NCBI GenBank assembly: GCA_964615975.1
Contig: CAZTTH010000008.1
Span: 13,814 to 77,813 of the forward strand
Direction: 5' to 3'
Length of the DNA: 64,000 bases
Source: an uncultured Lentisphaerales bacterium
GTDB lineage: Bacteria > Verrucomicrobiota > Lentisphaeria > JABSQK01 > JAJFLO01
Positions 3,074 through 20,654 of this stretch are shown piece by piece (the first letter of the stretch is position 1; the number at the start of each line of letters is the position of its first letter). A program made the translations under genes and the position numbers. The notes under the pieces were generated by a model. The model did not search any database, was not told where the DNA came from, and worked only from the letters and a program-made list of their open reading frames with translations.

Positions 3074-3640
3074 TTGAATTATCAACTTATGAAACGTCTA
3101 CTATCAGCGCTTAAAGCCTTCTGGCACATCCTTTGCGGTCGCGAAGAGGCTCCCCCTGTCCCGGTTCAACCAGAGTCAGTAAAACCAGCAACTGCTCCGG
3201 CAACACCTGCAGCGGCGATTACCGCCGCATCCAAATCAGCTTCATCGGATAAACATACATTTCAACACGGCGCCATCTATGCCCTGGTGCTGTTGCAACG
3301 GCATGGCCGCCTGATTGATTTTCTTCAGGAAAAGCTGGACGACTACAGCGACGAACAAATCGGCACTGCCGTCCGTCAAATCCATCATGATTGCCAGGTG
3401 GTTTTCACCGAGAATTTTCACCTCCAGCGTATCCTGCCAGAGGAAGAAGGACAGCCCATAAAATTCGAAAAAGCTGTCGACCCTCTGGCAATCAAACTGA
3501 CTGGCGCCATCCCCGCCGCGCCTCCCTACCAGGGGGTGTTGCGTCACAAGGGATGGAAGATTGGTAAAATTCATTTGCCGGAACGGAGCGGGAAAATCGA
3601 TCCCCACATCATTGCCGCCGCGGAAGTGGAAATCGCTTGA
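3074..3640 (+). CDS. DUF2760-like protein
   Basis: GRLIDFLQEKLDDYSDEQIGTAVRQIHHDC and the C-terminal GVLRHKGWK match my recollection of the DUF2760 family, which is usually encoded next to atypical Hsp70 genes. The start is either TTG 3074 or ATG 3089. Confidence 0.65.
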   Translation: MNYQLMKRLLSALKAFWHILCGREEAPPVPVQPESVKPATAPATPAAAITAASKSASSDKHTFQHGAIYALVLLQRHGRLIDFLQEKLDDYSDEQIGTAVRQIHHDCQVVFTENFHLQRILPEEEGQPIKFEKAVDPLAIKLTGAIPAAPPYQGVLRHKGWKIGKIHLPERSGKIDPHIIAAAEVEIA

Positions 3641-3691
3641 ATCGTATCCCGGGATTAAAGGATGATGATGGTGGTATAACTCATAAATAAA

Positions 3692-3790
3692 CCGTTGAAC
3701 TCATTAACCTGCGAACCTTATAACCTATTAACTCTTTAACCTCTTAACACTGAACCCCATTAACCTTTGAACCTTGAACTTTATTAATCC
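3692..3790 (+). repeat. G-poor tract built from reiterated TTAACC / TGAACY words, directly upstream of the Hsp70 gene
   Basis: Read directly: ttgaactcattaacctgcgaaccttataacctattaactctttaacctcttaacactgaaccccattaacctttgaaccttgaactttattaatcc. Confidence 0.6.
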
Positions 3791-3799
3791 CATACCCCC

Positions 3800-5611
3800 A
3801 TGTCACGTTATATCATCGGCATCGATTTAGGCACAACCAATATCGCCATATCCTATCTGGATCTGGAATCCGACACGCCCACAGTGGAACTCTTTTCCGT
3901 CCCCCAACTGGTGGCGCCGGGAGAGATCGATGCGCTTCCACTGCTCCCCTCATTTCTCTATCTCCCGCCCGAGGCGGATGTGGAACGCGGCATTTATGAT
4001 CTGCCGTGGGCAGAGAAACCCCAACATTGTGTTGGCACGTTGGCGCGCAAGAACGGGCCGCTGGCGCCCGGGAAGGTGATTGCTTCGGCCAAATCCTGGC
4101 TGTGCACACCGACCGTCGATCGGCTGGCGCCGATTCTGCCGTGGGGTCAACCTGCGACGGCAGGCAAGATCTCCCCGATTGACGCGACCCGCTATTATCT
4201 CGAGCATCTCAAAGGCGCTTGGAACCAGCATTTTGCCATGGACGATTCCACCCTCGCATTTGAACAGCAAAAAATCATTGTCACCGTGCCCGCCTCCTTC
4301 GATGCCGTGGCCCGGGAATTGACGGTCAAGGCGGCGGAACTGGCAGGATTGACAATTAATTTGCTTGAAGAACCACAGGCGGCGTTTTACGCCTGGCTGC
4401 ATGAGCATGAGAAGAATTGGCGCAAGATGGTGGCGATCGGCAAGCGCATACTGGTCTGCGATATCGGCGGCGGCACCACCGATTTCAGCTTGATTCAGGC
4501 GGTTGACGATAACGGCAGTGTCGGCCTTGAGCGGGTCGCGGTCGGCAATCACATCCTGCTAGGTGGGGACAACCTGGACCTGGCGCTGGCAGTCTATCTT
4601 TCCGAAAAACTCAAACGCGACAAGGGGATCAAGCTCGATCTCAATCAGTTCACCGCCATGACCCATTCCTGCCGAGAAGCCAAGGAGAAGCTGTTCTCGA
4701 GCGCTAAACCGAAACCGCAGAAAATCACCGTGCTGGGACGCGGCAGCAGTGTCATCGGCGGCACGATCACCACGGAACTTACCTTGGAGGAATTGACCAC
4801 GGTGGTGCTGGAGGGATTTTTCCCCCCCTGCGAGCTAAGTGACCAACCGACAACACAAAAGCGACTGGGATTACGCGAATTCGGCTTGAATTACGAGTCC
4901 GATCCGGTGATAACCAAGCATTTGGCGGCGTTTCTTTCCCGGCACTCAGACACGGCGGGGGCCGCCGGCCTGCCAGAGATGATCCTCTTCAACGGCGGCG
5001 TCACCAAAGCCGACAGCATCTGCCAGCGCATCATCGACAACCTGAGAAAATGGCATGGCAACTCTGAAGCCTCGGAAATCACCGTTCTCACCGGCACGGA
5101 TCCCGACACGGCCGTGGCGATCGGCGCCTGCTGGTATGGTCATGTCAGTATTGGCAAAGGCATTCGCATCAAGGCCGGCAGCGCGTTCTCCTATTATGTC
5201 GGGGTGGAATCATCACAACCGGCAATACCCGGATTTCAACCGCCATTGCAGGGACTGTGCGTAGCGCCATTTGGCCTCGAAGAAGGCAGCACTGTCGATA
5301 TTCCCTACACCGGCCTGGGCCTGGTGGTTGGTGAACGCACCGACTTCCAGTTCTTCGCCAGCACTGATCACAAGGAAGATCAATGCGGTACGATCATCGC
5401 CGATGTCGAAGAAGCCGGACTGCACACCCTGCCGGTGCTGACCGCCGAACTGCCGGCGGATGAAGCCACCATCCCTGCCGGCACCCTCCTGCCTATCCGC
5501 CTCAAGACCGTGCTCACCGAAATCGGCACTCTGCAGCTCTGGTGCCTGGAAGAAAACGGCGACCGCCAGTGGCAGCTCGAATACGAACTCCGCGCCCGCG
5601 ACGCGGATTAG
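3800..5611 (+). CDS. Hsp70-family ATPase (non-canonical, HscC/YegD-like) with a divergent C-terminal region
   Basis: IIGIDLGTTNIAIS (phosphate-1), VCDIGGGTTDFSLI (phosphate-2) and LFNGGVTK (adenosine motif). The C-terminal ~200 aa do not resemble the DnaK substrate-binding domain. Confidence 0.85.
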   Translation: MSRYIIGIDLGTTNIAISYLDLESDTPTVELFSVPQLVAPGEIDALPLLPSFLYLPPEADVERGIYDLPWAEKPQHCVGTLARKNGPLAPGKVIASAKSWLCTPTVDRLAPILPWGQPATAGKISPIDATRYYLEHLKGAWNQHFAMDDSTLAFEQQKIIVTVPASFDAVARELTVKAAELAGLTINLLEEPQAAFYAWLHEHEKNWRKMVAIGKRILVCDIGGGTTDFSLIQAVDDNGSVGLERVAVGNHILLGGDNLDLALAVYLSEKLKRDKGIKLDLNQFTAMTHSCREAKEKLFSSAKPKPQKITVLGRGSSVIGGTITTELTLEELTTVVLEGFFPPCELSDQPTTQKRLGLREFGLNYESDPVITKHLAAFLSRHSDTAGAAGLPEMILFNGGVTKADSICQRIIDNLRKWHGNSEASEITVLTGTDPDTAVAIGACWYGHVSIGKGIRIKAGSAFSYYVGVESSQPAIPGFQPPLQGLCVAPFGLEEGSTVDIPYTGLGLVVGERTDFQFFASTDHKEDQCGTIIADVEEAGLHTLPVLTAELPADEATIPAGTLLPIRLKTVLTEIGTLQLWCLEENGDRQWQLEYELRARDAD

Positions 5612-5789: not shown

Positions 5790-7862
5790 TTAAGCTCGTA
5801 AGTCATCCAGGAATTCTGAGGCTGGTTCAATGCCTGTGACCAGTAAATGATCCCTTGCCCGTGTACAAGCGACATAAAGCAAGTGACGTTCAGTGTCGTA
5901 GACCTCTTGCAAATCGGCATCGTCACCGACTGTTTCAATACGTTCCTGTAAGGGGATAATCTCGTCATCACAGGATATCACGGCCACGGCGCGGAATTCA
6001 AGCCCCTTGGCCAGGTGCATGGTGCAGATCGATACATGACCACTGCTCGTCTCGACATGGTCATCGAGGATATTGAATGGCAAACCCGACTCCTTGACTG
6101 CATCTTGAGCTCGTTCCAGTTGCCCTGGTGAACGCACGAAGACGCCGAATTCATGGGGTAGGAGACCGGCTTTCGTGAGCTCGGCAATCCATGTACCAAC
6201 AGAACTTATTTCGTCATTTTCACTCTTGAACACGCGAATGTCGGGTAATGGACCATTGAAGATCGAAATTGTATCGCTCCGATCTTCTCGATTGCCGTCC
6301 ACATCAGTAACTTCCGGACCAAGCAGACGATCAGCTTGCTGGCGGATTTGATGGGATGTGCGATAATTGATTCGCAGCGTGCGGGAACGACCGCGGATAT
6401 CAACACCGAGTGATTTCCAGGAGAAGGGTTGTTGGAAAATACGCTGACCAAGATCACCGGCAAAGAATAAAGCGTTGGAGCGCTCACCACCAAGCACGGC
6501 AAGGAAGCGGAGTTGTGAAACACTGAGATCCTGTGCCTCGTCAACAACTACAAAATCGAAGGGTAGCTTTTTGCTTTCCACCAATGTGGACGACAAGGCA
6601 GTGAAAATCCCCGCATGAGTGGATAACTTCCGCTCTTTCAATCCACTGCTGACCTGCTCAAAGATAGACCAGAGTACCACTCGTCGCTTTTCGGGCAGCC
6701 GGGTTTTGCGGCCAAGGCGGGCTACATCGCGGTAAGACTCCCATGTTTCCAATTGCCACGCATCGACGACTTGTTCCCATTCGGTAACCAGGAAATGCAG
6801 ACTGAACTTGTGATCTCCCACCACTTTCGCCGCGACATTGAGCAATTCCCGCACGATATCACGAGTGGCCAGGTTCACCTTGCCACATTGTGATTTAAAG
6901 AGTCGGAGACCGATGGCATTCAGGGAGTAAACTTCAATGCGTTCGACAAGACGCGGTTCGTTGCCGACCAATCGTTTTAGCTTGGTACGAAGCGCATTTG
7001 CCAGCGTGTCGGAAAAGGTTGTGAGCAGGATGCGGGCATCGGGATAGGCGCGGGCCAGATACACTGCCCGATGCAACGCCACAATCGTCTTTCCGGTTCC
7101 AGCCGATCCTGAAACACGGGATGGTCCATTTTGGTCGCGTTCCACCCATTGACGCTGTTCGGGATGGAGAAAAACAGTCCACTTCTCCCAGGGGAAATCG
7201 AGAGCACATTGAAGCTCTTCGATATTGTTCATCACCCGGAAGCGGCGTTGCGCATCGGGGTGATCAAACGGACTTGCAATCGGCATGGCCGGTTGAATCA
7301 CTCGCGGTTTGCCACCGGTGGCAAGTTCCAGGAGCGCTTCAGCCGCTTCCCCGGGCAGACGTTCCGCTAACAATAACAGGCTGTCTTCATTAACCTGGCG
7401 CACATCATTCAACCATTCTGCCGGCACGCCATAGCCAAGCAGTTCTTCATCGGAATTGGCGGTAAACAGGGGTGGTTTCGGTAGCGCCGGCAATTCCTGT
7501 TGCACATACACTGGTACATAGACCTCCTTCACCGTCTCGCGAATTTCCACGAGCTGAGCCGCCCCCGTCTTGGGATGCGTTTCCAGTTTCCGGCGTTGCG
7601 CCCAATTATAGGCTTTATCGTGGTGATCGACATAACAGAGCATCAAACTGGTACCGGTTTTGTGAACGATGAGCCGAATATCACTGGTTGCTCGAATCGA
7701 CCAGAAGTTGGCATCTTTGGCGCCCTCAATACGATGGCATTGCATCCCGGGATTGAGGGGATTCATCTGCAGGTCAAATGCCGTTGTCTTGACCGCTTTC
7801 TGCTCATCGCCGGTCAGGCGTGCAAGGCTATCGGTGAAGGTGGCGGCAATGCGGAAGTTCAT
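5790..7862 (-). CDS. SF1 UvrD/Rep-like helicase with an N-terminal RelE/ParE-like domain
   Basis: Helicase motifs: GSAGTGKT (I), VVVDEAQDLS (II), FFAGDLGQRIF (III), INYRTS (IV), TMHLAKGLEFRAV (V) and LLYVACTRARDHL (VI). The GAGGA Shine-Dalgarno sits about 7 nt upstream of the ATG. The first ~95 aa (FWSIRATSDIRLIVHKTG..LMLCYVDHHDKAY) look toxin-fold-like. Confidence 0.85.
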   Translation of the reverse strand: MNFRIAATFTDSLARLTGDEQKAVKTTAFDLQMNPLNPGMQCHRIEGAKDANFWSIRATSDIRLIVHKTGTSLMLCYVDHHDKAYNWAQRRKLETHPKTGAAQLVEIRETVKEVYVPVYVQQELPALPKPPLFTANSDEELLGYGVPAEWLNDVRQVNEDSLLLLAERLPGEAAEALLELATGGKPRVIQPAMPIASPFDHPDAQRRFRVMNNIEELQCALDFPWEKWTVFLHPEQRQWVERDQNGPSRVSGSAGTGKTIVALHRAVYLARAYPDARILLTTFSDTLANALRTKLKRLVGNEPRLVERIEVYSLNAIGLRLFKSQCGKVNLATRDIVRELLNVAAKVVGDHKFSLHFLVTEWEQVVDAWQLETWESYRDVARLGRKTRLPEKRRVVLWSIFEQVSSGLKERKLSTHAGIFTALSSTLVESKKLPFDFVVVDEAQDLSVSQLRFLAVLGGERSNALFFAGDLGQRIFQQPFSWKSLGVDIRGRSRTLRINYRTSHQIRQQADRLLGPEVTDVDGNREDRSDTISIFNGPLPDIRVFKSENDEISSVGTWIAELTKAGLLPHEFGVFVRSPGQLERAQDAVKESGLPFNILDDHVETSSGHVSICTMHLAKGLEFRAVAVISCDDEIIPLQERIETVGDDADLQEVYDTERHLLYVACTRARDHLLVTGIEPASEFLDDLRA

Positions 7863-7932: not shown

Positions 7933-8361
7933 TCATTTAGCATAATGGCATTCCATAACAGTATCGGCGATCAGTTGTGCTATAGTCAGATTATCTTGAT
8001 GAGAAATCCCATGAATTCCGCTATGAGACGGATCATTGTCTTCAGGTTCATGAATGAACTGCAACTGACGCGAATCATTCGATTCATTTTTTACAAAATT
8101 CCTGGTGTTTCCAACATTCACCACTGCAAACATACCCGTTGATGCCACATTGAATTTTTTAGCAAAAATTCGTCTTACTTCTTCAATTTCTTGAACACGA
8201 GAAGTTTTCTTGAGATATTCCAGCCAATTCACGGACAGATAAGTTTCATCATCTCGAAGCATGAATGAGGCACCGGTTGGTAGTCCAGTGGAAGGTGAAA
8301 GACTCCGAGGTTTACAATATCTTGAAACGTGATCGGAATCCTGGATAATGTCATTTCTCAT
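7933..8361 (-). CDS. hypothetical protein (142 aa), last gene of a three-gene operon
   Basis: The ORF overlaps the upstream gene by 11 nt. I recognise no family. The conserved-looking C-terminal HEPEDNDPSHSGIHGI may be catalytic. Confidence 0.55.
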   Translation of the reverse strand: MRNDIIQDSDHVSRYCKPRSLSPSTGLPTGASFMLRDDETYLSVNWLEYLKKTSRVQEIEEVRRIFAKKFNVASTGMFAVVNVGNTRNFVKNESNDSRQLQFIHEPEDNDPSHSGIHGISHQDNLTIAQLIADTVMECHYAK

Positions 8362-9067
8362 TGATCGTCGTCCATCGTTCTGTATTGAAGGGCGTTATGA
8401 GTTGACGAAAATCTTTCATGCCACATTTTCCTGAATTCCTAATTATTCCGTCCTGAGACGGAGAAAATATCAAATAATTAAGGTTATAATCCGAAAGAAA
8501 CTCAATGGTCAGATTTCGGGATTTATCTTTGCGCCATTGACAGATAATTGTCCCATTAGGGGATGCCATAATGTCAGGATGACAAAGGTCTTTATTCTGG
8601 GATAAAAATCGCAAGCAAGCGCCGACAGATGTTGCACTTAATTTCGTTTCCTCTAGATCTTCGGCGAGAAGGTCATTCAATTCTGTAATGCGAGCCAGCA
8701 CTTCATCTTTCTTTAACAGTGTTCGGCTTGAAAGGCGAAAGTCTATTAATGTTGCTCGAACTTTGTCATATTCTGACCTTATATCTCCTAAAATAGCCAT
8801 GGAAGTATTTTCCGAGGATTCGATTTCAGCTATGATTGCTTTGTCCTCTGGGCAAACACTCAAATAGATCATGGGTGTAAAATAATTCCGCGGTTTGATA
8901 GATGAGAACGAGGTTTTGGGGTTGAGAGATGATTCCCACTGGGCAAGAATTGAATAATCCGTTTGTCTTCGAGATAACAACAATGATTGTACTTGATATT
9001 CATCTTGATCGAATAGTGCTTCGCGGGTTAAGTCAAAATCATCCTTGTATGCGACTGCGGCAGTCAT
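8351..9067 (-). CDS. hypothetical protein (238 aa), middle gene of a three-gene operon
   Basis: An ATGA start/stop overlap with the upstream gene (9064-9067) indicates translational coupling. No recognisable motif. Confidence 0.55.
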   Translation of the reverse strand: MTAAVAYKDDFDLTREALFDQDEYQVQSLLLSRRQTDYSILAQWESSLNPKTSFSSIKPRNYFTPMIYLSVCPEDKAIIAEIESSENTSMAILGDIRSEYDKVRATLIDFRLSSRTLLKKDEVLARITELNDLLAEDLEETKLSATSVGACLRFLSQNKDLCHPDIMASPNGTIICQWRKDKSRNLTIEFLSDYNLNYLIFSPSQDGIIRNSGKCGMKDFRQLITPFNTERWTTINEK

Positions 9068-9858
9068 TTATCCTTCCTCCCCCAGAATTTTTTTTGGATA
9101 TTAATATCAGTAAAATCGCAAAATCCATAAACAATCCATTCATGCGCCAGGTCAAACCACTCCTCCATACGCTTATAACTGACGTCTCCACCCAAACCTT
9201 TAGCTGATAATTCGAGAATGTAAATAGGACTACCGTCCGTTTGTCTTTGACTAAAGCTCAAGCTTACCGTCAGTCGTCCAAAATCTTCAGGTAATGTAAA
9301 GATACCTCTCCATGCGTTTGATTCTGGTCCCGGCAGGAATCGGTCTTCATTTCGCCAAATCAAATCGGGGGCGAAATTTCCAACTTCTGCCGGCGTTTGC
9401 CATATGTCACCTATAGGTATGTGGTTGATGTAAGACAGTTCGCATTTCTGAATGTTGGGCTTGGGTATTTCTTGTTCGGAGAGAAAGGTACAAAATTCCT
9501 TAAGTTGATTCCAAAATTCGTTAATGACATTGGAATATCGCGGATAGGTTTCGTCACCTGTGATCCGCCGCCAATTAAACACGAAACAATTTCTCTGAAT
9601 TTGGATCAGCGATGTTTGGGTTGAGTTCAATAACCAAACACGCGGCCATGGCAGATCGTTCTCTGGGTCTAATGGTAAAAGTGGTTGTGCATGTTCACAA
9701 TGGGGATATCGCTCCTGAATTCTATCCCAATAACGTCCAATATGAGGAAGTTTGAATCCCGCCAATGATTTAAAATAAACACCAGCCACCACCTCATTGA
9801 TAGGCGGAGTTTCAAAATCCGGTAATTGTGTTTGTATGTCTTTTTTGTTTTTCTTCAT
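9064..9858 (-). CDS. TIGR04255-like uncharacterised protein (264 aa), first gene of a three-gene operon
   Basis: The N-terminal PPINEVVAGVYF, the length and the overall pattern resemble the TIGR04255 family as I recall it. Assigned from memory, not from a search. Confidence 0.55.
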   Translation of the reverse strand: MKKNKKDIQTQLPDFETPPINEVVAGVYFKSLAGFKLPHIGRYWDRIQERYPHCEHAQPLLPLDPENDLPWPRVWLLNSTQTSLIQIQRNCFVFNWRRITGDETYPRYSNVINEFWNQLKEFCTFLSEQEIPKPNIQKCELSYINHIPIGDIWQTPAEVGNFAPDLIWRNEDRFLPGPESNAWRGIFTLPEDFGRLTVSLSFSQRQTDGSPIYILELSAKGLGGDVSYKRMEEWFDLAHEWIVYGFCDFTDINIQKKFWGRKDK

Positions 9859-9969: not shown

Positions 9970-10125
9970 TCACCTGTCCTTTGCCCTGTCGAGTTTATAG
10001 AAGATCAGTGCCAATCTTGCCAGGTTAACCTGCAAATCAAATGCTGTCGTCTGAACTGCTTTCTGCTCATCGCCAGTCAGGCGTGCAAGGCTATCGGTGA
10101 AGGTGGCGGCGATACGGAATTCCAT
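9970..10125 (-). pseudogene. 5' fragment of a second, diverged helicase allele (N-terminal 33 codons, then unrelated sequence and a stop)
   Basis: nt 10030-10125 align without gaps to nt 7767-7862, with 84/96 identical by hand count. It translates to MEFRIAATFTDSLARLTGDEQKAVQTTAFDLQV, versus MNFRIAATFTDSLARLTGDEQKAVKTTAFDLQM in the helicase. Confidence 0.85.
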
Positions 10126-10242: not shown

Positions 10243-11898
10243 CTAAATAAGATGCCATTTCGGGTATTTTCGCGATCCTTCATTCCGGATTAAGTCCTCC
10301 CTTGCCATCGACTGAATCAGGTTAGTTACTTTGTTACGTTTCCGATCATCATCCAGGACATCAGATAATTTGCTGAATAAGAGCTTATCGATATCCTGGC
10401 GTGTGGCATGGCCATACTTCCGAATGAATTCCAGAATCATCTGCTTGTAATGTGCATCGTCGAAAGCGCGGTTTTTTATATACTGTGCTTTATCTCCAGT
10501 GGCCGAGGCGATATGCGCTGCCACGTATAGATTGGGATAACGGCCTTCAATAAGTTTATCATTTCGTAGCATATTCGCTTCATCTTTGGATACTGCTTGT
10601 CGTTTCTGAATTCGGTCTAATAAAATCACTTTGCTCAGCGGCAAATCTTTCTGATCCATAAGCATGACGGTGTAATTAGGGTCAATCACCTGGCCATGTA
10701 TGGTTACGATTACTTTACCCGGTGTCGATAGATTGAAATCGGGTAACGGATAAAATCGCTTGCGTTGCTCCTGGAACATCCGTCGAATGCCATATCCCAT
10801 GGTATCGATCATATTCACATTCACCATGGCGTCTGCGAGAAAACGATTACGATAGCGCTCTGGGGTCTTTTCCCGCAACGTATAATCCTCAAGCCCACCT
10901 TCGAAAAAATCTCCCGCACTCTCAAATACCAAACGATCAGGTCGCTCCGCGACAATTATCCGCGCTTGCTGGCGGTAATCCTGATGGGCAATCGCATTAT
11001 GCATTGCTTCCAGTACCACCCATTTTTCATACTTGGGGACTTCAAATGGAACCAGTTGACCGGGGACATCAAGCTTTTGCATGGTATTACGAATCCGGGC
11101 ATAACATTCACTGGTAGTCAGGAGAAATGGCGGACTGAAGTGTTCGTATGCCTGTTCCGTTCCTTCCAGTTTCCAGGTGATTTGCGCTACTGCCGGTTCC
11201 AGATGATAAGCCGCTTCTTCTCGCCCCAGCAACAGCAGACATGCACGGGTAATCGCGCCGTTCTTTGTCAATTTGGCTTTATCCAGCAATGTCGTATTCG
11301 ACCATGAATCAATCTCTCCGGCAAAGTACTTGTTTCGATTTTTATCACGAAAGTTCCGCCGAGCCGCCACGATTGCCTCCGAATTCAAGTCGTCAATAGT
11401 GGCTTGTGAACAGATTTCTGCTGACCAATCATCAAGCACTGCTTGTGACCGAATCTGCTCCAACTCATGAAGACTTAAGGCGACCAGCGACTCCCCATCG
11501 CGACCATACCAATGCCCTTTGAAGGAGACCGGCAACCCGGGCGGCGCCGCGGGAACCTGAAACATAATGACCCGGCCAGCGGCATGATACGCAATGTGAA
11601 TATCGATAAAACTCATGCGATTGGTTTGATTGGCAATTTCATGTTTAAGGCTATTCAAATAGTCTGCTTTGTCGCGATAACGACTCCCACAAATGCTCCG
11701 ATCATCATTGGCGATGCCGAACACCAGCCAGCCACAGGGTTGATGCTTGAGGTTTGCTTCATTCGCCAACGCTGAAAAATATTGCCCCAGTTTATCGAAG
11801 GAGAAATCATTTTTCGCTTCTTTGAACTCCACCCATTCCGTTTCATGGGGAAGCTGTCGTAGTTCATCAAGTTTATCAAGTAATTGCTGATTCGTCAT
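10243..11898 (-). CDS. AlbA_2/Schlafen-like (divergent AAA) DNA/RNA-binding protein with a RecG-C-terminal-like ATPase/wHTH region
   Basis: ETEWVEFKEAKNDFSFDKLGQYFSALANE is the hallmark N-terminus of the AlbA_2 family. The start overlaps the mod stop by 4 nt. Confidence 0.75.
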   Translation of the reverse strand: MTNQQLLDKLDELRQLPHETEWVEFKEAKNDFSFDKLGQYFSALANEANLKHQPCGWLVFGIANDDRSICGSRYRDKADYLNSLKHEIANQTNRMSFIDIHIAYHAAGRVIMFQVPAAPPGLPVSFKGHWYGRDGESLVALSLHELEQIRSQAVLDDWSAEICSQATIDDLNSEAIVAARRNFRDKNRNKYFAGEIDSWSNTTLLDKAKLTKNGAITRACLLLLGREEAAYHLEPAVAQITWKLEGTEQAYEHFSPPFLLTTSECYARIRNTMQKLDVPGQLVPFEVPKYEKWVVLEAMHNAIAHQDYRQQARIIVAERPDRLVFESAGDFFEGGLEDYTLREKTPERYRNRFLADAMVNVNMIDTMGYGIRRMFQEQRKRFYPLPDFNLSTPGKVIVTIHGQVIDPNYTVMLMDQKDLPLSKVILLDRIQKRQAVSKDEANMLRNDKLIEGRYPNLYVAAHIASATGDKAQYIKNRAFDDAHYKQMILEFIRKYGHATRQDIDKLLFSKLSDVLDDDRKRNKVTNLIQSMAREDLIRNEGSRKYPKWHLI

Positions 11899-14800
11899 GG
11901 GTTCACCCGGAATACCTTCATTACCTCGTCTCCAAGATGGTTGATTACTTTGATGGCGATGCGGCCGGACTTCGGCTTCTCGAATGGGCGGGAGGTGTCA
12001 CTGTTCAGAGTGGCCCAGGCGTCGGCGTTGATCTCGGCTTTGAGAGTGGTCTTGAGGGCGCTGTAGGGATCGTTGGCGCCAAGGAAATATGCATGGCGGA
12101 CAAAGAAGCTTTCTTCATTGTAATCGGTGTCGATGAACCAGCAGGCAATGCCATCGGTATTGCAGCTTTCTACTTCACCGGTTTGGGGTTTGAAGACATC
12201 CACTCCATTTACAGTGACCTGGAAATAGTGGCGAGTGGTCAGGGGAGAGTGGATAGCGATTTGATCAATGCGTTTAGCATTTTGTTGATCTTGGCACAAT
12301 TGTTCAATAAGTTTTCGCAGTCCTTCCTGGAAAGAAGTTCCAGCCTTTCGGACAAGATCAGAAAGGTTTCCAACTCCGCCAGCGATCCCCGCGCAATGCC
12401 AAGCGATTGTAGAAACTCCCCCGTGCTCCTGCGGGCCTGCCCTTCGGCGATGTTTGCCGGGACGGAGGTCACTGCCCGTCGCATTTGTGATGTAATCCCA
12501 TATCTCTCGGCGGCAGGAAAGCTGCGCGTAATCGCGTAGGTCTGCACCGCCAAGTCGATTGATTTCTGCCAGACTATTAACTCCCGATATGAGCTTATAG
12601 ATTTCATAAGGTGCTATTCTCCTTTCTGAACTATCCACTAACCACTCTTCACTTGCCACTTCAATATCAGGTTCCCCGAATATCACAAACAAGTTGCCTT
12701 TGCCGGTGTTCTTGAGATCTTCAGCCATGTGGAGGTCGGCGTTCATGCGGGCTTTGAGCACTGGGATGCGGCCCAGCTTCTTGAATTCGGTGGTGTGCGC
12801 TTCGTAGTTAAAAGCGCAGACGATCAAGACATCAAACCCGGCATCGCCGGCTTCGCGGGCGGCGGCGACGAGATCGGCGCGCTGGACGGTGCCGAACTCG
12901 GGGCCGATGAAGATTCCAGCACGGATTTCCGTGCCGGAATCAGTGGATAGTGAGGAGTGGTTAATGGCATATTTTTCTTGTTGATCACCCTTCACTAACC
13001 ACTCACCACTTGCTTCAAACCGCCCTTCGGCGCAGACCAATTCGCCCGGCCAGGGAACCAACGAGGTGAAAGTGATCCGATCCTCCTTGTGCGCCTGCTG
13101 CACCCCTGCGGTCTTGAGGTTTTCCAGAACCATCTGGGGGAATGACTGCTTTCCATATTCGACACCGCCTTCCAACATGGTGTCGATCAATTCGTCGTCC
13201 TCGTCGACCCCGAGCACACGATGAGGTGAAAGACTCTCCACGGTGAAGGGACCGGCGACGCGGACTGTCTTCTTGTCCTCATAGGGTTTGTCGTAGAGAT
13301 ATTCGACATCAGCCTTGGCGGAAATCGACGCATCAATTTCCTTTTGGCGGGCAATTCGTTTGTGCCACCAGTCGGAATGCAGCTTCAGAATGTGGGACAG
13401 ACATTCTTGTCTGTCTTTAGGGGGGAGTTTGGCGGTGGAAGAAGCAGACAGGAATGTCTGCTCCACACTGGCAGATTCGCGCGGAATTTCCCATTCTTCC
13501 CATTTCATATTAAGCGCGGTATTGAGCTCTGCTCGAAGAAATTCCAGCTCTGGTTGGAATTTCTCCCAGATAACATCGATCTCGGCGTTGTTGGCGATGG
13601 ACTTGAGCGTGATGTGTGGCACACGTTCATAGACGAAGCCGTGGCGGATGTTCCCCTGCACCGGTTGCGAACTTGGGGCGGTGCGAGTGACTTCGGCTTC
13701 CTTGAGCTGACCTTCAATGGAATCGACTAGTAGGTAAAAGGGATACCGTGCGCCCATGATGCGAGCACGGGCCAATGCCAGCGCCACGCGTGAGGTGTCG
13801 ATCGTGATCCAACGGCGCCCCCATTGCTCGGCGACGGTGGCGGTGGTACCAGAACCGCAGGTCGGGTCAAGTACGAGGTCACCGGGATCGGTGGCCAAGA
13901 GAAGGCATCGTTTTATTGCTTCTGTAGCAGTCTGAACGACAAAAATCTTTGGATCTGCACGGCTTTGAATGCCCCCGATATCATCCCAGACGTTTGAAAG
14001 TGTATGAACGGGAAAATCTTCAATGTAGCGAACGTAATTTAATATCTGCTTGCTCGGAGAAATACGATTTGCCAATTCGAGTCTGGCCATGCCATTGGGT
14101 GTTGTCTTCCAACTGCCTTGGTGTTCGCAGTTTCGTAGTGTCACTAACACTACTGGGTTTGCTTCTGACGTTGTCTTGTCGAGACGGAAAATTCGTGACG
14201 CGGGCGGGAAGGCATCAGGGAATTTTTCACTCGCTTGTTTTAGTGTAATTCTTGTTCCATCTGGTAGTTCGACTCCGTTGTATTTTGTGCCGCCATGTTC
14301 TCCTGGTCTCTTCTCGGCGTACAGATGCCGTGCTTTCGCATGGGTCTTATGCTTTGCGAACCAGAGAATGAAATCGCATTTGTTATTCACGAAGTCTTGA
14401 ACAAGACCTCCTGTCTTTACGAATGTGATTTGGCTGACACAATTCTCTTCTCCGAAGACCTCATCCATCACTGCCCGGACACGGTGAACATTTTCATCGC
14501 CGATCTGGACGAAGATGGAGCCGGAATCTGTTAACAAGTCACGGGCCACTGTCAACCGGTCCCGCAGGTAGGTAAGGTAGCTATGGATGCCTTCGCGCCA
14601 GGTATCGCGAAAGGCTTTAACTTGTTCGGGTTCACGTGTAATATGATCAACCTTGCCGTCCTTCACATCACGGCTGGTGGTGGACCACTGGAAATTGCTA
14701 TTGAACTTGATGCCATAAGGCGGATCGATATAGATGCACTGCACCTTGCCGCGCAACCCCTCGCGCTCGGCCAGGCTGGCCATGACCTGGAGGGAGTCGC

Positions 14801-15230
14801 CGAGGATCATGCGGTTGGACCAATTCTGATCGTGTTGATAGAACTCAGTCTTGTCCACGCCCTGAGGAATGCCATTAAAATCCGCGAATAAGTCTGGCTG
14901 CCACGATTCGGTGGAGTGATTAGTGGATAGTGAAGAGTGGCGCAGTAGATCGTCAATCAATACCTTGGGGTGAATTTTCTCCTGAATGTATAACGGCGGG
15001 GCATGGACAACGAGATCGCTCCAGTCCTGTTCATCCTTGCCGCGCCAAACGAGTTGGGGATCGAGATCGGTGTTGCGGGGATAACGCACCTGCTTGGGGT
15101 TCTGCTGCTCCTTCTCCAGCACCGACTGGTATTCGGCGGTGGGAATGTTCTTGCGCGTCGCGTCGTCGTGCTTGAGTGTTTCGACTGTCTTGGTTTTATT
15201 GTTTGCATTGGCCATGTTATTAAATCCCAA
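11895..15230 (-). CDS. mod: type III-like N6-adenine DNA methyltransferase (Mod), 1111 codons including several in-frame insertions
   Basis: IYIDPPYGIKFNSNFQ (motif IV, DPPY), LVLDPTCGSGTTATVAEQWGRRWITID (motif I), and the conserved C-terminus CWFIDTDYNEESFFVRHAYFLG...IAIKVINHLGDEVMKVF. Confidence 0.85.
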   Translation of the reverse strand: MGFNNMANANNKTKTVETLKHDDATRKNIPTAEYQSVLEKEQQNPKQVRYPRNTDLDPQLVWRGKDEQDWSDLVVHAPPLYIQEKIHPKVLIDDLLRHSSLSTNHSTESWQPDLFADFNGIPQGVDKTEFYQHDQNWSNRMILGDSLQVMASLAEREGLRGKVQCIYIDPPYGIKFNSNFQWSTTSRDVKDGKVDHITREPEQVKAFRDTWREGIHSYLTYLRDRLTVARDLLTDSGSIFVQIGDENVHRVRAVMDEVFGEENCVSQITFVKTGGLVQDFVNNKCDFILWFAKHKTHAKARHLYAEKRPGEHGGTKYNGVELPDGTRITLKQASEKFPDAFPPASRIFRLDKTTSEANPVVLVTLRNCEHQGSWKTTPNGMARLELANRISPSKQILNYVRYIEDFPVHTLSNVWDDIGGIQSRADPKIFVVQTATEAIKRCLLLATDPGDLVLDPTCGSGTTATVAEQWGRRWITIDTSRVALALARARIMGARYPFYLLVDSIEGQLKEAEVTRTAPSSQPVQGNIRHGFVYERVPHITLKSIANNAEIDVIWEKFQPELEFLRAELNTALNMKWEEWEIPRESASVEQTFLSASSTAKLPPKDRQECLSHILKLHSDWWHKRIARQKEIDASISAKADVEYLYDKPYEDKKTVRVAGPFTVESLSPHRVLGVDEDDELIDTMLEGGVEYGKQSFPQMVLENLKTAGVQQAHKEDRITFTSLVPWPGELVCAEGRFEASGEWLVKGDQQEKYAINHSSLSTDSGTEIRAGIFIGPEFGTVQRADLVAAAREAGDAGFDVLIVCAFNYEAHTTEFKKLGRIPVLKARMNADLHMAEDLKNTGKGNLFVIFGEPDIEVASEEWLVDSSERRIAPYEIYKLISGVNSLAEINRLGGADLRDYAQLSCRREIWDYITNATGSDLRPGKHRRRAGPQEHGGVSTIAWHCAGIAGGVGNLSDLVRKAGTSFQEGLRKLIEQLCQDQQNAKRIDQIAIHSPLTTRHYFQVTVNGVDVFKPQTGEVESCNTDGIACWFIDTDYNEESFFVRHAYFLGANDPYSALKTTLKAEINADAWATLNSDTSRPFEKPKSGRIAIKVINHLGDEVMKVFRVNP
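12227..12660 (-). mobile_element. IVS-like cassette inside mod: a four-helix-bundle gene bounded by 30-nt imperfect inverted repeats
   Basis: The arms at 12227-12256 (agtggcgagtggtcaggggagagtggatag) and 12631-12660 (ctatccactaaccactcttcacttgccact) are reverse-complementary at 23/30 positions by hand count. They enclose the ORF 12239-12607. Confidence 0.55.
12239..12607 (-). CDS. four-helix-bundle protein (23S rRNA intervening-sequence protein / Avd-like family), nested in mod in a different frame
   Basis: YRELIVWQKSIDLAVQTYAITRSFPAAERYGITSQMRRAVTSVPANIAEGQAR...GSLAELETFLILS is the classic family signature. It has its own AAGGAG Shine-Dalgarno about 11 nt upstream of the ATG. Confidence 0.8.
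   Translation of the reverse strand: MKSISSYRELIVWQKSIDLAVQTYAITRSFPAAERYGITSQMRRAVTSVPANIAEGQARRSTGEFLQSLGIARGSLAELETFLILSERLELLSRKDCENLLNNCAKINKMLNALIKSLSTLP
12942..13013. repeat. 'empty' hairpin made of the same AGTGG/CCACT arm family, in frame within mod
   Basis: agtggatagtgaggagtggttaatgg, a ~19-nt loop, then ttcactaaccactcaccacttgc. The right arm is near-identical to 12636-12657. Confidence 0.6.
13396..13461. repeat. pair of short perfect palindromic hairpins inside mod coding sequence
   Basis: GACAGACA-ttct-TGTCTGTC (13396-13415) and GCAGACA-ggaa-TGTCTGC (13444-13461). Same hairpin family as 15410-15429. Confidence 0.7.
14911..14940. repeat. solo arm of the AGTGG repeat family within the 5' part of mod
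   Basis: gtggagtgattagtggatagtgaagagtgg. The stretch agtggatagtgaagagtgg matches 12942-12960 at 18/19. Confidence 0.55.
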
Positions 15231-15777: not shown

Positions 15778-16350
15778 TCAAACTGCCAATCGGTCAGTGA
15801 CTACATCATCGATCATCTTGTTGAACTCGGCTTCAACCTTTTTAGTAAAATCCGCCTCGATCTGATAAACCATGCGTTCGCTCGCCCGGATTTCGCAGAC
15901 CTCTTCAAGCAGTTCCTCGAAGTATCGCCGGTCGAAACGAGTGCCGTGTTTAAAGCGGTCGGAATCGATAGCGAAACCTTTGAGGATGTAGTCCTTTAAC
16001 CGATCGGTAGCCCAGGTACGAAATTGGGTCGCTCGCACGCTTTTGACGCGATACCCAACAGCTATGATCGCTTCGAGGCTGTAAAGCTTCGTACGATACT
16101 GCTTGCCATCAGCGGCAGTTACCGAGGATTCCTCGGTAACTGCTGATTCGATTAGTTCTTGATCGGCGAAAATATTCTTTAAATGCAAGGAGATATTGTC
16201 GGTGGAACACTCATAAAGTTCGGCTATGAGTTTCTGGGTGAGCCAAACATTTTCGTTCTCGAAGCGAACTTCAACGCGAGCCCGCCCATCTTCACTTGCG
16301 AAGATGGTGATATTGTCGATGCGTATAGGTTGCGAATTTTTAGACATCAT
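15778..16350 (-). CDS. RhuM-family protein, truncated and fused to a Res-type C-terminal tail
   Basis: The RhuM core is LYSLEAIIAVGYRVKSVRATQFRTWATDRLKDYILKGFAIDSDRF...EIRASERMVYQ. The last ~25 aa (IEADFTKKVEAEFNKMI) are homologous to the Res C-terminus (IEADFSKKVKFEFDRML). Confidence 0.75.
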   Translation of the reverse strand: MMSKNSQPIRIDNITIFASEDGRARVEVRFENENVWLTQKLIAELYECSTDNISLHLKNIFADQELIESAVTEESSVTAADGKQYRTKLYSLEAIIAVGYRVKSVRATQFRTWATDRLKDYILKGFAIDSDRFKHGTRFDRRYFEELLEEVCEIRASERMVYQIEADFTKKVEAEFNKMIDDVVTDRLAV

Positions 16351-17435
16351 TAACTTCCTTCCTGCATGGATTCTCTGGTCAAAATAGCATTCAAGGCGGT
16401 GTTAATGTAGTAATTAGTCCGCCCTATTTTTTGTTTTTTAAGGAAGCCGCCGCCGGTCAACGCATCGAGATATTTGGTGGCGGTGAGGCGCGACACCTTC
16501 AGATCACGTTCGACGAATTCGATCTTGGTATAGGGGTGGGTAAACAGGTTATTGATCAGATCCTGACTGTAAAACTTGTACTCCGCGCGAATACGGTGCT
16601 TCGCATCCATCAACGCCGCATTAATGGCATGGATGGTTTCGATGGCATCACCGGCGGTTGATTCAATGGCGGTAAGCAGGTAAAGCACCCACTCTTCCCA
16701 TGCATCGTTTTCGCGAACACTCTGAAGCAGTCGATAATAATCCGGTTTGGTGCGGACGATGTGGCGGCTGAGATATAGCACCGGGATATCGAGCAGACCT
16801 TCCTTCACCAAGTAAAGCACATTAACGATGCGGCCGGTGCGGCCATTGCCATCATAGAACGGGTGGATACTTTCAAACTGGTGATGGATCAACGCCATTT
16901 TAATGAGCGGGTCAGCGGCAAATAAATCACGATCATTGATGAAACGCTCAAGATCGCGCATGAGCGCGATAATGGTATCTGGATCTTGCGGCGGCATATA
17001 GATCGCCTGACCAGAGCCATCTTTCAACACAGTCCCTGGCAGTTTGCGGAAACCGGCGTTGTTTTGCTCCAGCTCTACCTGAATCTGAATGATATGGTTG
17101 ATGGTAAGCAGACCACTTTGTTGCACTAGATCGAATCCAACCCGTAAAGCCTGGCGATACCGTAGTACCTCCTTGGCGGCGCCATGGTGCAAGTTCTCGG
17201 GAAAAAGGTCATCTTTATATAATTCGTCATGAGTGGTCACGATGTTTTCTATGGCCGAACTATCCTTGGCCTCCTGTATTCCCAGAGTGTTGATGAGTAT
17301 CCCCTGGTTAGGAATGGAGGCGGCGACTCCCTTGAGTTCAGCTAGTTTACGACTTGTTAAAGCCAATTTTTTAAGGATAACGGGAGTATCGAATCTTATC
17401 GACGGCAAACGATCTAATGGCAGAATGGTGGTCAT
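16350..17435 (-). CDS. Fic-family protein (AMPylase/adenylyltransferase type) with a C-terminal wHTH
   Basis: Fic motif HPFYDGNGRTGR. The stop overlaps the rhuM start. Confidence 0.9.
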   Translation of the reverse strand: MTTILPLDRLPSIRFDTPVILKKLALTSRKLAELKGVAASIPNQGILINTLGIQEAKDSSAIENIVTTHDELYKDDLFPENLHHGAAKEVLRYRQALRVGFDLVQQSGLLTINHIIQIQVELEQNNAGFRKLPGTVLKDGSGQAIYMPPQDPDTIIALMRDLERFINDRDLFAADPLIKMALIHHQFESIHPFYDGNGRTGRIVNVLYLVKEGLLDIPVLYLSRHIVRTKPDYYRLLQSVRENDAWEEWVLYLLTAIESTAGDAIETIHAINAALMDAKHRIRAEYKFYSQDLINNLFTHPYTKIEFVERDLKVSRLTATKYLDALTGGGFLKKQKIGRTNYYINTALNAILTRESMQEGS

Positions 17436-17537: not shown

Positions 17538-20500
17538 TCATAATGATGCCGGCCGCGGGTGTATTATCATGCTTAACATCCGATCAAATTCAAATTTAAC
17601 CTTCTTGGAAAAATCTGCCTCAATCTGATAAACATCATTGAACTCGGCGAATGCCCAGCGGCCAAACGTGCCCAGGTTGTTCACACCGGGTACCCAGTAG
17701 GTTTCGATGGCGGACTTCTTATCCTTGGCATCCTCGCGGCGGTAGCCTTTGATCTCAACAATCAGATGGAGGAGATCGTCGGGCCCGTGGCCGTCATCCA
17801 CGCGCACGATAAAGTCCGGCAGATACTTGCGGATTTCAGAACCATGGCGATAGGGCACTTCGAGGCCGAGGTTGTGATTTTTGACGTAGGCATGAACTTT
17901 AGGGTGCGACTCGGCGACCCGGCAGAACTCGGCTTCCCAATCGCTGTCGAGGATAACCCAGTTGATATGGCAACTCTTGGAACTGGTTTCCCAGCGGTCA
18001 CGGCGCGAGGTGTTAAAGCGAACATGGGCCGTGGAGCCCGTGGGATTATAAGGGTCGAGCAGGGCTTTGATGGGACGTTCTCCGACGAAGGCGCGGGTAA
18101 TACCGGCAGTAATGCGTTCGCAAGCTATATCAGCGAGCATTTTGTATTTTAACTGCGCGGGGTAAGTTCTACCCTTGCAAATCAAGCAAGTGTCCAGCCA
18201 ATGCTTGGCAATCCGTTTCAATTGTCCGAAAAGATTAAAATGGGCAGACTGCCCCGGGTCACGCCAATGATTCAGAACGAGATGGGAAGTCAATTCAAAA
18301 AGAATTTGTGATGGACGCACCTCTCTAGTATGATCGAGAGTCAGGTCGACAGTTTGTCCAATTATTCCAGACTGACGAGTCGTTGTTGCACCAACCAACT
18401 CCGGGGTAAGCTCAAGAATCGAGTCTTGGTCAAATTGGGCAATTAGACGATCATCGGGCAATTCAACACGATAGCCTGCCACACGGGGGAAAATTATCTC
18501 CAGATGATTTCTCTCTGGGCTAATGGCTTTCACTCGGACGGTTTGCGGGGGTGGTTGTGGGGGAGAGATTACGGGCTGGGCTGTAAAGTTAAAGGGAATG
18601 CCAATAATATCAGCATATTCTACATTGAACAATCCTTTATCCGATCCTTCCTCATTTAGCCAATAGGACCATCGCCTCAGAGCTCGGCCGATGACCTGTT
18701 CACATAGTAGCTGAGTACCAAAAGCCCGAACTCCAAGTACATGAGTGACAGTGTTGGCATCCCAGCCCTCGGTAAGCATGGAAACTGAAACAACACAACG
18801 AATGTCACTACCAAGTGTCCCAGGTTTGCCCACAGTGTTCATAACTTCCCGCAATAGGGTTGTATCGTCGAAATCTTTTCCTTCCCTCAATTGCTCCGCC
18901 AAGGGGCCGCCTCTTTCCATAACTTGACTCTTGAACTGAGTAATTTCAGGGGCTGCAACTGCTCGGAAGTTATCATCGAAACCTTCCCCCGATTCCAATT
19001 GAGCGCTGTCGATGAGCAATGTGTATGGGCGAGTTAATGGGTTGCCGTGCTCGTCATGATTTCGGAATAGTTCGAGACGTCCACCCACAGGCTTGAAGCT
19101 TCCATCCTCCTGCAGTTGATCAAAGCCAGAAATGAAATCGTAGATTAGCTTCGAAACGGCCGTGTTCTGACAAACAATGATAAAGCATGGCGGAACCGGG
19201 ATCCCTCTTTCTCGCCAACACTGAAAAGTTTTGGAATAGTGGCCATAGAGTGCTTCGAGTGCGGTTTGAAGTAAGGGGGGCAGGCTCAAAGGGTCAAGTC
19301 TAGACTGACCGCGCTTTTTCTTTGGCATTTTCGAGCGCACGTTCTCCCACAGATTTCTGAATAACGGAACGTCAGCTCCGGGTATGTTGTCCGAGACTGG
19401 AACCCGAGGCAATTTCACGATTCCGCACTCAATTGCGTCCATGAGTGAAAAATCGCTCATCGTCCAGTGGAACATCGTACCTTCTCGATATCCAGAGCCA
19501 CGGAGAAAGAAAGGTGTTGCAGAAAGATCGATTACACGAAGAAGACCGATTTTGCGATTCACTTTCTCAAGTCCCGAAATCCAAAGTCGTGCCGCCTTGT
19601 TGTTCTCCGCAGCTTCTTCCCTGGCTTCTCTCAGTGCGTTGCCAGAAAGAGGATTACCTTCTGAATCAGTGAACTGACTGTCGTCTGCAGGTTTCTCACG
19701 ATAACAGTGATGTGCCTCGTCATTTATAACAAGGATATTTTTCATGCCCATGAGTTCGGGCATGACACGTTGAATCATCTGGCCTTCGGTCTCAAGTGTT
19801 AGCGGATCATCACCGGTTCGGCCCTTGAGGAGTTGACGGTTGCCTTTTGAAAGATTGGTGCGCTCCCGGAGTTTGAAGGCATGGTAGTTGGTGATGACAA
19901 TCTTGGCCTTCTTGAGATCGTCGAGCATATCATGCGGCACGAGTTCGCGGCTAGCATAATAGCTGTCAGGATCGTGGGGTTGGAGGACGCGCAGACGATC
20001 CTTGATGGTCAGACCGGGGGCGACGATGAGGAACCCACGGCTGAAATATTTGCTGCCAGGGCGGCGGACAGCATTGATGGTTTGCCAGGCGATAAGCATG
20101 GCCATAACGGTGGTCTTGCCAGCGCCGGTGGCCAGTTTCAGGGCGAAGCGCATGAGTTCAGGATTGGCATCCTGATTAGCGCTTGCCAGGTAATCGAGCA
20201 ATTGTTTACTGCTCTTATAAAAGGGAGCGACTTCGGTCAGCCAGATGGCGGTTTCGACCGCTTCAATCTGACAGAAGAACGGGCGGAAGTCGCCGAATTT
20301 ATGGTGACGCCAGTGCTGCAGCAGGCGGGTTGTCTCGGGGCTAACCTGCCATTGGCCGGGATTGGACAACGCCCGCCAGGCATTCACATGGCGGCGAACT
20401 TCATTGATGTTGGACGTAGGATCGTATTGCTGATCCTTGGTCGAAAGCCCCTGGCCTTCGTCGAATACGAATTCTTCCTGAGCGGCGGATTGCTTCCGCT

Positions 20501-20654
20501 TCTTCGGTTTGGGAATAGGAGTGATAAACTCAGCCCGGCGACGACTCAGCATGATCCGCTGTGTCGGTTGTCCAGATTTATCCAATTCCCAGTGTCGACT
20601 TGGACACTCATAAGGCGAGTTGAGGATGGGGTGGTCGAAGAAGGGATTGGACAT
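17538..20654 (-). CDS. res: type III-like restriction endonuclease / SF2 helicase subunit (Res)
   Basis: KLATGAGKTTVMAMLIAW (Walker A / motif I), LVINDEAHHCY (DEAH, motif II), and MLTEGWDANTVTHVLGVRAFGTQLLCEQVIGRALRR (motifs V-VI). Confidence 0.9.
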   Translation of the reverse strand: MSNPFFDHPILNSPYECPSRHWELDKSGQPTQRIMLSRRRAEFITPIPKPKKRKQSAAQEEFVFDEGQGLSTKDQQYDPTSNINEVRRHVNAWRALSNPGQWQVSPETTRLLQHWRHHKFGDFRPFFCQIEAVETAIWLTEVAPFYKSSKQLLDYLASANQDANPELMRFALKLATGAGKTTVMAMLIAWQTINAVRRPGSKYFSRGFLIVAPGLTIKDRLRVLQPHDPDSYYASRELVPHDMLDDLKKAKIVITNYHAFKLRERTNLSKGNRQLLKGRTGDDPLTLETEGQMIQRVMPELMGMKNILVINDEAHHCYREKPADDSQFTDSEGNPLSGNALREAREEAAENNKAARLWISGLEKVNRKIGLLRVIDLSATPFFLRGSGYREGTMFHWTMSDFSLMDAIECGIVKLPRVPVSDNIPGADVPLFRNLWENVRSKMPKKKRGQSRLDPLSLPPLLQTALEALYGHYSKTFQCWRERGIPVPPCFIIVCQNTAVSKLIYDFISGFDQLQEDGSFKPVGGRLELFRNHDEHGNPLTRPYTLLIDSAQLESGEGFDDNFRAVAAPEITQFKSQVMERGGPLAEQLREGKDFDDTTLLREVMNTVGKPGTLGSDIRCVVSVSMLTEGWDANTVTHVLGVRAFGTQLLCEQVIGRALRRWSYWLNEEGSDKGLFNVEYADIIGIPFNFTAQPVISPPQPPPQTVRVKAISPERNHLEIIFPRVAGYRVELPDDRLIAQFDQDSILELTPELVGATTTRQSGIIGQTVDLTLDHTREVRPSQILFELTSHLVLNHWRDPGQSAHFNLFGQLKRIAKHWLDTCLICKGRTYPAQLKYKMLADIACERITAGITRAFVGERPIKALLDPYNPTGSTAHVRFNTSRRDRWETSSKSCHINWVILDSDWEAEFCRVAESHPKVHAYVKNHNLGLEVPYRHGSEIRKYLPDFIVRVDDGHGPDDLLHLIVEIKGYRREDAKDKKSAIETYWVPGVNNLGTFGRWAFAEFNDVYQIEADFSKKVKFEFDRMLSMIIHPRPASL

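Follow-up and report, generated by a model that had tools for sequence, protein, structure and literature searches.

A RelE-like/UvrD-type helicase related to ArmD as the third gene of a mobile Type III-like restriction-modification module

The gene considered here lies in a stretch of 64,000 nucleotides (the window) from an uncultured Lentisphaerales bacterium (GenBank assembly GCA_964615975.1, contig CAZTTH010000008.1, positions 13,814 to 77,813 of the forward strand) and encodes a protein of 690 amino acids (aa) in which a RelE/ParE-type toxin fold is joined to a superfamily 1A (SF1A) helicase motor. It is the conserved third and last gene of a horizontally mobile Type III-like module, where it follows genes for a restriction protein (Res) and a modification methyltransferase (Mod), and alignment shows its product to be homologous over its full length to ArmD, the helicase of the ARMADA Type II defence system. 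We consider it probable that the protein is an ArmD-type RelE-like/SF1A defence protein of the Res-Mod module, with a motor that would engage the nucleic acid of invaders and an N-terminal domain, controlled in cis, that would act as a ribonuclease (RNase) or as a binder of RNA or ribosomes; the RNase activity of this domain and the defence role of the helicase are what we infer from fold, residues and context. The fusion itself is already known, both from ArmD and from the names given to homologues in IMG. The undescribed part, as far as we have found, is its embedding in a pan-bacterial Res-Mod module that has cargo slots and of which it is the conserved third gene.

The Res-Mod-helicase module

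With residues 1-125 as query, the N-terminal domain was found in at least 574 species genomes (one genome per species scanned), and the best 80 loci are 70-81% identical to the query. These come from many phyla, among them Pseudomonadota, Verrucomicrobiota, Planctomycetota, Acidobacteriota, Gemmatimonadota, Nitrospirota, Chloroflexota, Spirochaetota, Bdellovibrionota and Armatimonadota. When the window proteins were used in tblastn searches, Mod was found upstream of the helicase gene and on the same strand at 75 of the 79 loci with sufficient upstream sequence, and Res was found upstream of Mod at every locus whose contig extends far enough. Mod homologues at the 75 loci are 57-92% identical over the best segment, and those of Res are 64-78% identical in most loci and 54% in two. 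The trio is present without cargo on plasmid p1NCPPB4222 of Pseudomonas avellanae, and the same Res-Mod-helicase order is seen on a Rhizobium plasmid whose helicase homologue is only 47% identical. Metagenome contigs with helicase homologues carry Res, Mod and the helicase gene with differing genes in between.

No model of PADLOC 2.0 matches Res at E≤1e-10; thus, PADLOC 2.0 is without a restriction endonuclease model for this protein, and only Mod is recognised there. Our search of the literature on BPTD_3080 and on Type III restriction with UvrD and RelE found no published description of the trio. As a separate observation, Mod contains an insertion of about 140 aa (residues 862-1002) that is absent from a 938-aa homologue, and its reading frame is open throughout. 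In another frame, the insert encodes a 122-aa 23S rRNA-intervening-sequence protein (12239-12607, minus strand; PF05635, E 8e-39; also bAvd-like).

Relationship to ArmD

The ARMADA Type II system was reported in 2025 in a preprint by the groups of Koonin, Nobrega and Beisel (bioRxiv 10.1101/2025.09.15.676423), in which ArmD proved to be required, since deletion of armD or the K266A substitution abolished defence. The gene was also needed in enterohaemorrhagic Escherichia coli (mBio 2026, PMC13463889), and the RelE-like domain of ArmD was left unmutated in both studies. A tblastn search against plasmids recovered an E. coli plasmid with the ArmA-ArmB-ArmC-ArmD gene arrangement, and residues 9-676 of the window protein, the N-terminal domain included, align colinearly with the ArmD encoded there (32% identity, E 4e-96). 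Colinear homology, a RelE-like N-terminal domain, a UvrD/GajB-like core and the alignment of K258 with K266 together place the window protein among the ArmD-like helicases. The operon is another one: in place of the ARMADA Type II genes, the window holds a BPTD_3080-family Res and an N6_N4 Mod.

The N-terminal domain

A sequence-only reading of the window, whose quoted protein start agrees exactly with the open reading frame (ORF) translation (positions 7560-7862 being residues 1-101), had proposed that the helicase begins with a RelE/ParE-like toxin fold. Structure prediction bore this out. Residues 1-125 were modelled with AlphaFold2 on an alignment of 52 homologues that are 57-78% identical (alignment A2). 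The model reached a mean predicted local distance difference test (pLDDT) score of 88.3 and a predicted template modelling (pTM) score of 0.77, and Foldseek independently led to the same fold, its top match having an E value of 2.4e-5 and a template modelling score of 0.75. In the model, a strand (residues 2-5) is followed by two helices (7-14 and 18-33), four strands (42-44, 53-57, 62-68 and 72-80), a helix (81-89) and a hairpin (91-95/102-106). This is the compact β-α-α-β-sheet(-α) arrangement of the RelE/ParE superfamily, superposable on solved members, and no different fold emerged. The prediction is decisive for a RelE/ParE-type fold at the N-terminus, and its top structural matches are active RNases, not ParE.

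Profile searches pointed the same way through the homologues. When the 52 members of alignment A2 were scanned singly against Pfam, 46 matched the HigB-like_toxin family PF05015 (best E 1.7e-5) and 23 matched the ParE_like family PF24732 (best E 1.8e-4). ParE_toxin and ParE-like_toxin were matched once each, and the remaining matches were to unrelated families or single matches to other RelE/ParE-type families. No NCBIfam model covers the domain.

The third check named in the sequence-only reading, whether catalytic residues of mRNA interferases are retained, likewise favoured its proposal, as had those on structure and profiles. In hhalign comparisons, residues 51-81 of alignment A2 fall on residues 53-83 of E. 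coli YoeB (E 3.6e-5), with R63 on R65 and H81 on H83, and the same segment falls on residues 61-92 of Proteus vulgaris HigB (E 0.003), with D79, H80 and H81 on D90, Y91 and H92. We take the catalytic residues to be R65 and H83 in YoeB and D90, Y91 and H92 in HigB; the reference sequences used for the two toxins agree exactly with PDB entries 2A6Q and 4MCT. Aligned to those of YoeB and HigB, catalytic-type residues thus occupy strand 3 and the C-terminal end of the sheet, as in the RNase branch of the superfamily. Among 358 homologues, conservation is nearly complete at H43 (353), R57 (350), R63 (355), H67 (357), H80 (354), H81 (357), D82 (350) and Y85 (358). A full-length alignment of 73 sequences, ArmD among them, shows no exchange at R63, H81, D82 or Y85. 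Going by its spacing, H43 may correspond to H54 of HigB or E46 of YoeB, a position at which ArmD has a glutamate.

A cognate antitoxin gene, as found next to type II toxins, does not adjoin the helicase gene. Downstream, clustering of 65 loci revealed no shared ORF of at least 35 aa within 900 bp, except among near-identical contigs. Upstream, the gap between Mod and the helicase gene is 100 bp or less at 17 loci, so that an antitoxin gene would not fit there. The lack of room at these tight junctions and the lack of a shared downstream ORF place the N-terminal domain outside a classical two-gene toxin-antitoxin module.

Proposed role of the helicase

By analogy with ArmD, we propose that the helicase would belong to a Type III-like restriction-modification system, either as its third subunit or as an accessory dedicated to it. 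Its ATP-driven SF1A motor would engage the nucleic acid of unmodified invaders alongside Res and Mod, and the tethered N-terminal domain would cleave RNA or, at minimum, bind RNA or ribosomes. For cleavage, the most plausible targets would be transcripts that are nascent or bound to ribosomes, as for RelE, YoeB and HigB, and the activity would be restrained in cis by the remaining polypeptide, not by a separate antitoxin.

Several points weigh against this proposal. Defence by ARMADA II is direct and not abortive (bioRxiv 10.1101/2025.09.15.676423), a route that makes a poor fit to a toxin acting by global shutoff of translation. At the positions of H43, H67 and H80, ArmD has E, L and K, and those histidines are therefore not all essential across the family. 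Entry of a 690-aa fusion into the ribosomal A site, putative though plausible, counts on this side as well. Scanned by itself, the window protein stays below the gathering score of PF05015 (E 0.039; 14.9 bits against a cut-off of 27), its match running from residue 37 to 81 on the C-terminal half of the profile. A phmmer search of PDB sequences with the N-terminal domain gave no match, a profile of the 52 homologues gave only insignificant matches to TTC5 and PBP2 in the same set, and hhalign to the single E. coli RelE and YafQ sequences was not significant.

The replaced histidines of ArmD and the non-abortive character of ARMADA II defence also favour the main rival, in which the N-terminal domain would be an exapted, catalytically silent RelE fold that serves as an adaptor through which the helicase docks to Res/Mod, nucleic acid or the ribosome, its conserved residues forming a binding surface. 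Invariance is greatest at W87-Q103, a stretch beyond the canonical RelE core, and the missing antitoxin gene is what one would expect of a harmless domain. However, the residues aligned to YoeB R65 and H83 are invariant family-wide, ArmD included, and the closest structural relatives are RNases with activity, so that we hold a silent adaptor to be possible and rather unlikely. A second rival starts from the ParE side of the superfamily: a ParE-like domain would interact with DNA gyrase or a topoisomerase and couple the DNA motor to topology control or to gyrase poisoning. The PF24732 matches and the single matches to ParE_toxin and ParE-like_toxin speak for it, but twice as many members match the HigB-like family, and the arginine and histidine aligned to the catalytic residues of YoeB are invariant. 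Because RNase members are the better matches, we give a ParE-like role a lower likelihood and regard it as improbable.

If the cis-controlled RNase that we favour is indeed active and has no antitoxin, it would show plainly how a type II toxin fold can be domesticated into an effector that sits on a DNA motor and is regulated in cis. The very strong conservation marks R63, H81, D82 and Y85 as informative targets for mutation. The present clade would offer a simpler test bed for ArmD-type helicases, with three genes versus four and with natural examples free of cargo. A bolder form of the proposal can be offered only tentatively and is doubtful as a whole. An active RNase would be a second, RNA-level arm of a DNA-restriction system, the helicase tracking unmodified invader DNA and the domain cutting its ribosome-bound or nascent transcripts in cis under intramolecular control; the trio would be an undescribed pan-bacterial defence system; and the conserved ends of its genes would be recombination anchors that shuttle other defence genes between phyla.

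The helicase core and domain organization

The polypeptide is modular: an endoribonuclease-fold domain spans residues 1-106, the linker and the helical domain take up about 125 residues, and a UvrD-type SF1A core spans 231-690. Pfam places UvrD-helicase (PF00580) at residues 232-477 with 70.9 bits and UvrD_C (PF13361) at 604-676 with 65.6 bits, both above cut-off, which leaves about 230 N-terminal residues without assignment; the helical domain (136-185) within them had no match in the Pfam scan of the window protein. Foldseek matched the core to UvrD, PcrA and Rep at E values near 1e-15, and the PADLOC profiles that match it are those of GajB and NERD+UvrD, the GajB profiles starting at residue 232. 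Both Walker motifs are intact and invariant in the 73-sequence alignment. Across 72 homologues, mean identity is highest in the N-terminal domain (76%), intermediate in the helicase core (67%) and lowest in the linker at residues 107-135 (53%).

A model of the full-length protein, built on a shallower alignment (A4), had a pLDDT of 71.6 and a pTM of 0.42. It recovered the N-terminal fold, a disordered linker at 109-125 and the helical domain at 138-181, and showed a second stretch of low confidence at 189-210, before the helicase core. Its pTM is too low for inter-domain packing, so that the arrangement of the domains, autoinhibition and occlusion of the putative active site by the 91-106 hairpin or by the helicase are not interpretable from this model.

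The top matches of the core in NCBIfam and Foldseek, namely PcrA, Rep and UvrD, would suit a housekeeping repair or transcription helicase, an orthologue of UvrD, PcrA, Rep, HelD or helicase IV with an ordinary accessory domain at its N-terminus. Yet the helicase fell short of the equivalog cut-offs that NCBIfam sets for PcrA, Rep, UvrD and HelD by an order of magnitude (the best, PcrA, scored 71.9 against 911 bits), and therefore the helicase is not a housekeeping orthologue. The RelE-like fold of the N-terminal domain, the restriction-modification operon at nearly all loci and the occurrence of the gene in many phyla at 60-80% identity also contradict this reading, which we consider very improbable. 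NCBI annotation names members of the family, L090, L091 and P0210 among them, '3'-5' exonuclease'. The name looks misleading, as far as domain content can tell, because the Pfam and NCBIfam scans of the window helicase show no exonuclease domain.

Spread of the family

The N-terminal domain had 3571 homologues in the sequence search and 2383 cluster representatives at E≤0.001. A blastn search of complete E. coli genomes with the helicase gene gave no match. The same architecture is found in over 120 clusters whose members have about 690 aa and in 74 intact ORFs recovered from genomes, and IMG names many homologues as an mRNA-degrading endonuclease RelE plus a superfamily I helicase. The expectation of the sequence-only reading that such a fusion would be unusual did not hold, since it is widespread and had already been noted for ArmD and in the IMG names. 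That a small RelE toxin gene was joined to a helicase gene by frameshift, misassembly or read-through might be suggested by the many short database matches of 110-190 aa, but these end in out-of-frame junk or in a truncated piece of the helicase, and the clusters and intact ORFs refute such an artefact. Genuine stand-alone small members of the family were sought among the short entries and rejected, these entries (P0001-P0120 and P0241 included) being mostly contig-end fragments or frameshifted pieces.

Cargo slots and the 5' stub

Both junctions of the module are cargo slots for variable genes. The gap between Mod and the helicase gene exceeds 500 bp in 56 loci and reaches a maximum of 7.2 kb, and Res and Mod lie more than 500 bp apart in 22 of 47 loci and at most 150 bp apart in 24. 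In the window, both slots are filled (Table 1). Of 88 other loci, a single one has a homologue of the AlbA_2/HATPase_c_4 protein, and there it does not lie between Mod and the helicase gene. The three genes of the low-GC cassette (GC 0.39-0.43 versus 0.50-0.57 in the core genes) are absent from the other loci compared by tblastn and are without a match in Pfam, PADLOC or PHROG; the product of 264 aa matched only TIGR04255, a sporadically distributed family. They may be uncharacterised defence cargo. Other loci carry DUF1016/YhcG, FRG and ORF6N genes and, in one (L003, 5923-9986), a complete GajA/GajB pair. With Gabija, Fic, RhuM, AlbA_2, DUF1016 and FRG genes at its junctions, the module would make useful bait for new defence genes.

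Between the AlbA_2 gene and the cassette lies a short remnant of a second helicase allele. The sequence-only reading had taken the N-terminal domain to be duplicated at 10030-10125; the first 33 or so codons are indeed shared, within an ORF that spans 9970-10125, and the copy is a stub, not the whole domain. It is about 90% identical in nucleotides to the helicase gene over the first 100 or so nucleotides (33 codons, covering strand 1 and the two N-terminal helices) and then diverges; tblastn aligned it to residues 1-56 at 66%. The stub has neither the β-sheet nor any candidate catalytic residue. Similar 5' stubs stand near an intact gene at three other loci: L081 (5880-6092, residues 1-75), L088 (8571-8698, residues 1-43) and L080 (15474-15536, residues 1-21). 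Their presence in several genomes suggests recurrent recombination in the first codons of the helicase gene. On the simplest reading, diverged copies of the module would have recombined in the conserved 5' end of the helicase gene in the window, bringing in the cassette and the intact helicase gene and leaving the old start behind. The 5' end of the helicase gene would then serve as a homology anchor for cargo exchange, which would account for the stub.

Immediately on the 3' side of the helicase gene, on the opposite strand (3074-5611, plus), are genes for a DUF2760 protein (188 aa) and then a divergent Hsp70-like protein (603 aa), the latter with a weak PADLOC match to the candidate PDC-M61B.

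Table 1. Features of the helicase gene and of the module in the window (all on the minus strand)
Feature	Position	Strand	Description
RelE-like/UvrD-type helicase gene, complete	5790..7862	-	690 aa; ORF translation; ArmD homologue by alignment
Predicted RelE/YoeB/HigB-type toxin-fold domain	7545..7862	-	Residues 1-106; β1, α1, α2, four-strand sheet, α3, conserved β-hairpin 91-106
Flexible linker	7458..7544	-	Residues 107-135; pLDDT <50 at 109-125 (full-length model)
Small four-helix domain	7308..7457	-	Residues 136-185; helices 138-143, 148-155, 162-168 and 171-181; pLDDT ~80
UvrD/PcrA/Rep-type SF1A ATPase-helicase core	5793..7172	-	Residues 231-690; Pfam PF00580 and PF13361
Walker A, GSAGTGKT	7086..7109	-	Residues 252-259; K258, aligned to ArmD K266
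Walker B, DEAQD	6528..6542	-	Residues 441-445; aligned to ArmD D454
Low-GC cassette, three genes	7933..9858	-	142, 238 and 264 aa; between stub and helicase gene
Remnant of second helicase allele, 5' stub only	9970..10125	-	51 codons; after AlbA_2 gene, before low-GC cassette
Schlafen AlbA_2 + HATPase_c_4 protein	10243..11898	-	551 aa; cargo between Mod and helicase gene; Pfam
Mod, N6/N4 DNA methyltransferase	11895..15230	-	1111 aa, with nested insert; PF01555; PADLOC MTase_III, 1355 bits
RhuM-family protein	15778-16350	-	Cargo between Res and Mod; Pfam
Fic/DOC protein	16350-17435	-	Cargo between Res and Mod; Pfam
Res, superfamily 2 (SF2) ATPase with C-terminal endonuclease	17538..20654	-	1038 aa; NCBIfam NF046055, BPTD_3080 family restriction endonuclease, 1319 bits (cut-off 800); Pfam ResIII and RE_endonuc

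Comparison with known systems

ArmD is the closest relative described. The two proteins have in common the RelE-like N-terminal domain and the GajB/UvrD-like core, the top PADLOC profiles, the invariant R63, H81, D82, Y85 and Walker A lysine, and the position of last gene in a methyltransferase-containing defence operon. They differ in their partners, which for ArmD are the BrxHII-like ArmA, the PglX-like ArmB and the YprA-like ArmC, and the window clade varies much less, its members being 60-80% identical across phyla.

As in Type III restriction-modification systems of the EcoP15I type, Res combines an SF2 ResIII ATPase with a C-terminal endonuclease, Mod is an N6/N4 methyltransferase that matches PADLOC MTase_III, and both are encoded in one operon. 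The classical systems have two genes with Mod before Res, whereas here the order is Res, Mod, helicase, with cargo genes at both junctions.

With the ribosome-dependent mRNA interferases RelE, YoeB, YafQ and HigB, the N-terminal domain shares a C-terminal strand and helix motif that aligns to YoeB and HigB, the catalytic arginine and histidine included. Those toxins stand alone at about 90 aa; in contrast, the window domain is fused to a 580-aa helicase, has an extra hairpin (residues 91-106), scores below the Pfam gathering threshold and belongs to a gene with no adjacent antitoxin gene. Defence proteins in which a RelE fold is joined to another module are known as well. Cami1 (CARF-RelE) joins it to a sensor, but is controlled by cyclic oligoadenylate through its CARF domain and is without a helicase. 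CnuH of the CoCoNuT systems, an SF1 helicase that includes a RelE-like (RTL) domain (PMC11090510), thus also joins the fold to a motor; its helicase is UPF1-like, not UvrD-like, and its RelE-like domain lies internally, beside an SmpB-like domain.

GajB of Gabija, finally, has a UvrD-like SF1A core and is among the best PADLOC matches of the window helicase, but its profiles cover the helicase core only. No OLD/TOPRIM domain, as in GajA, was detected by PADLOC or Pfam in the neighbouring window genes scanned, and where a complete GajA/GajB pair does occur, at L003, it is separate cargo upstream of the RelE-like helicase.

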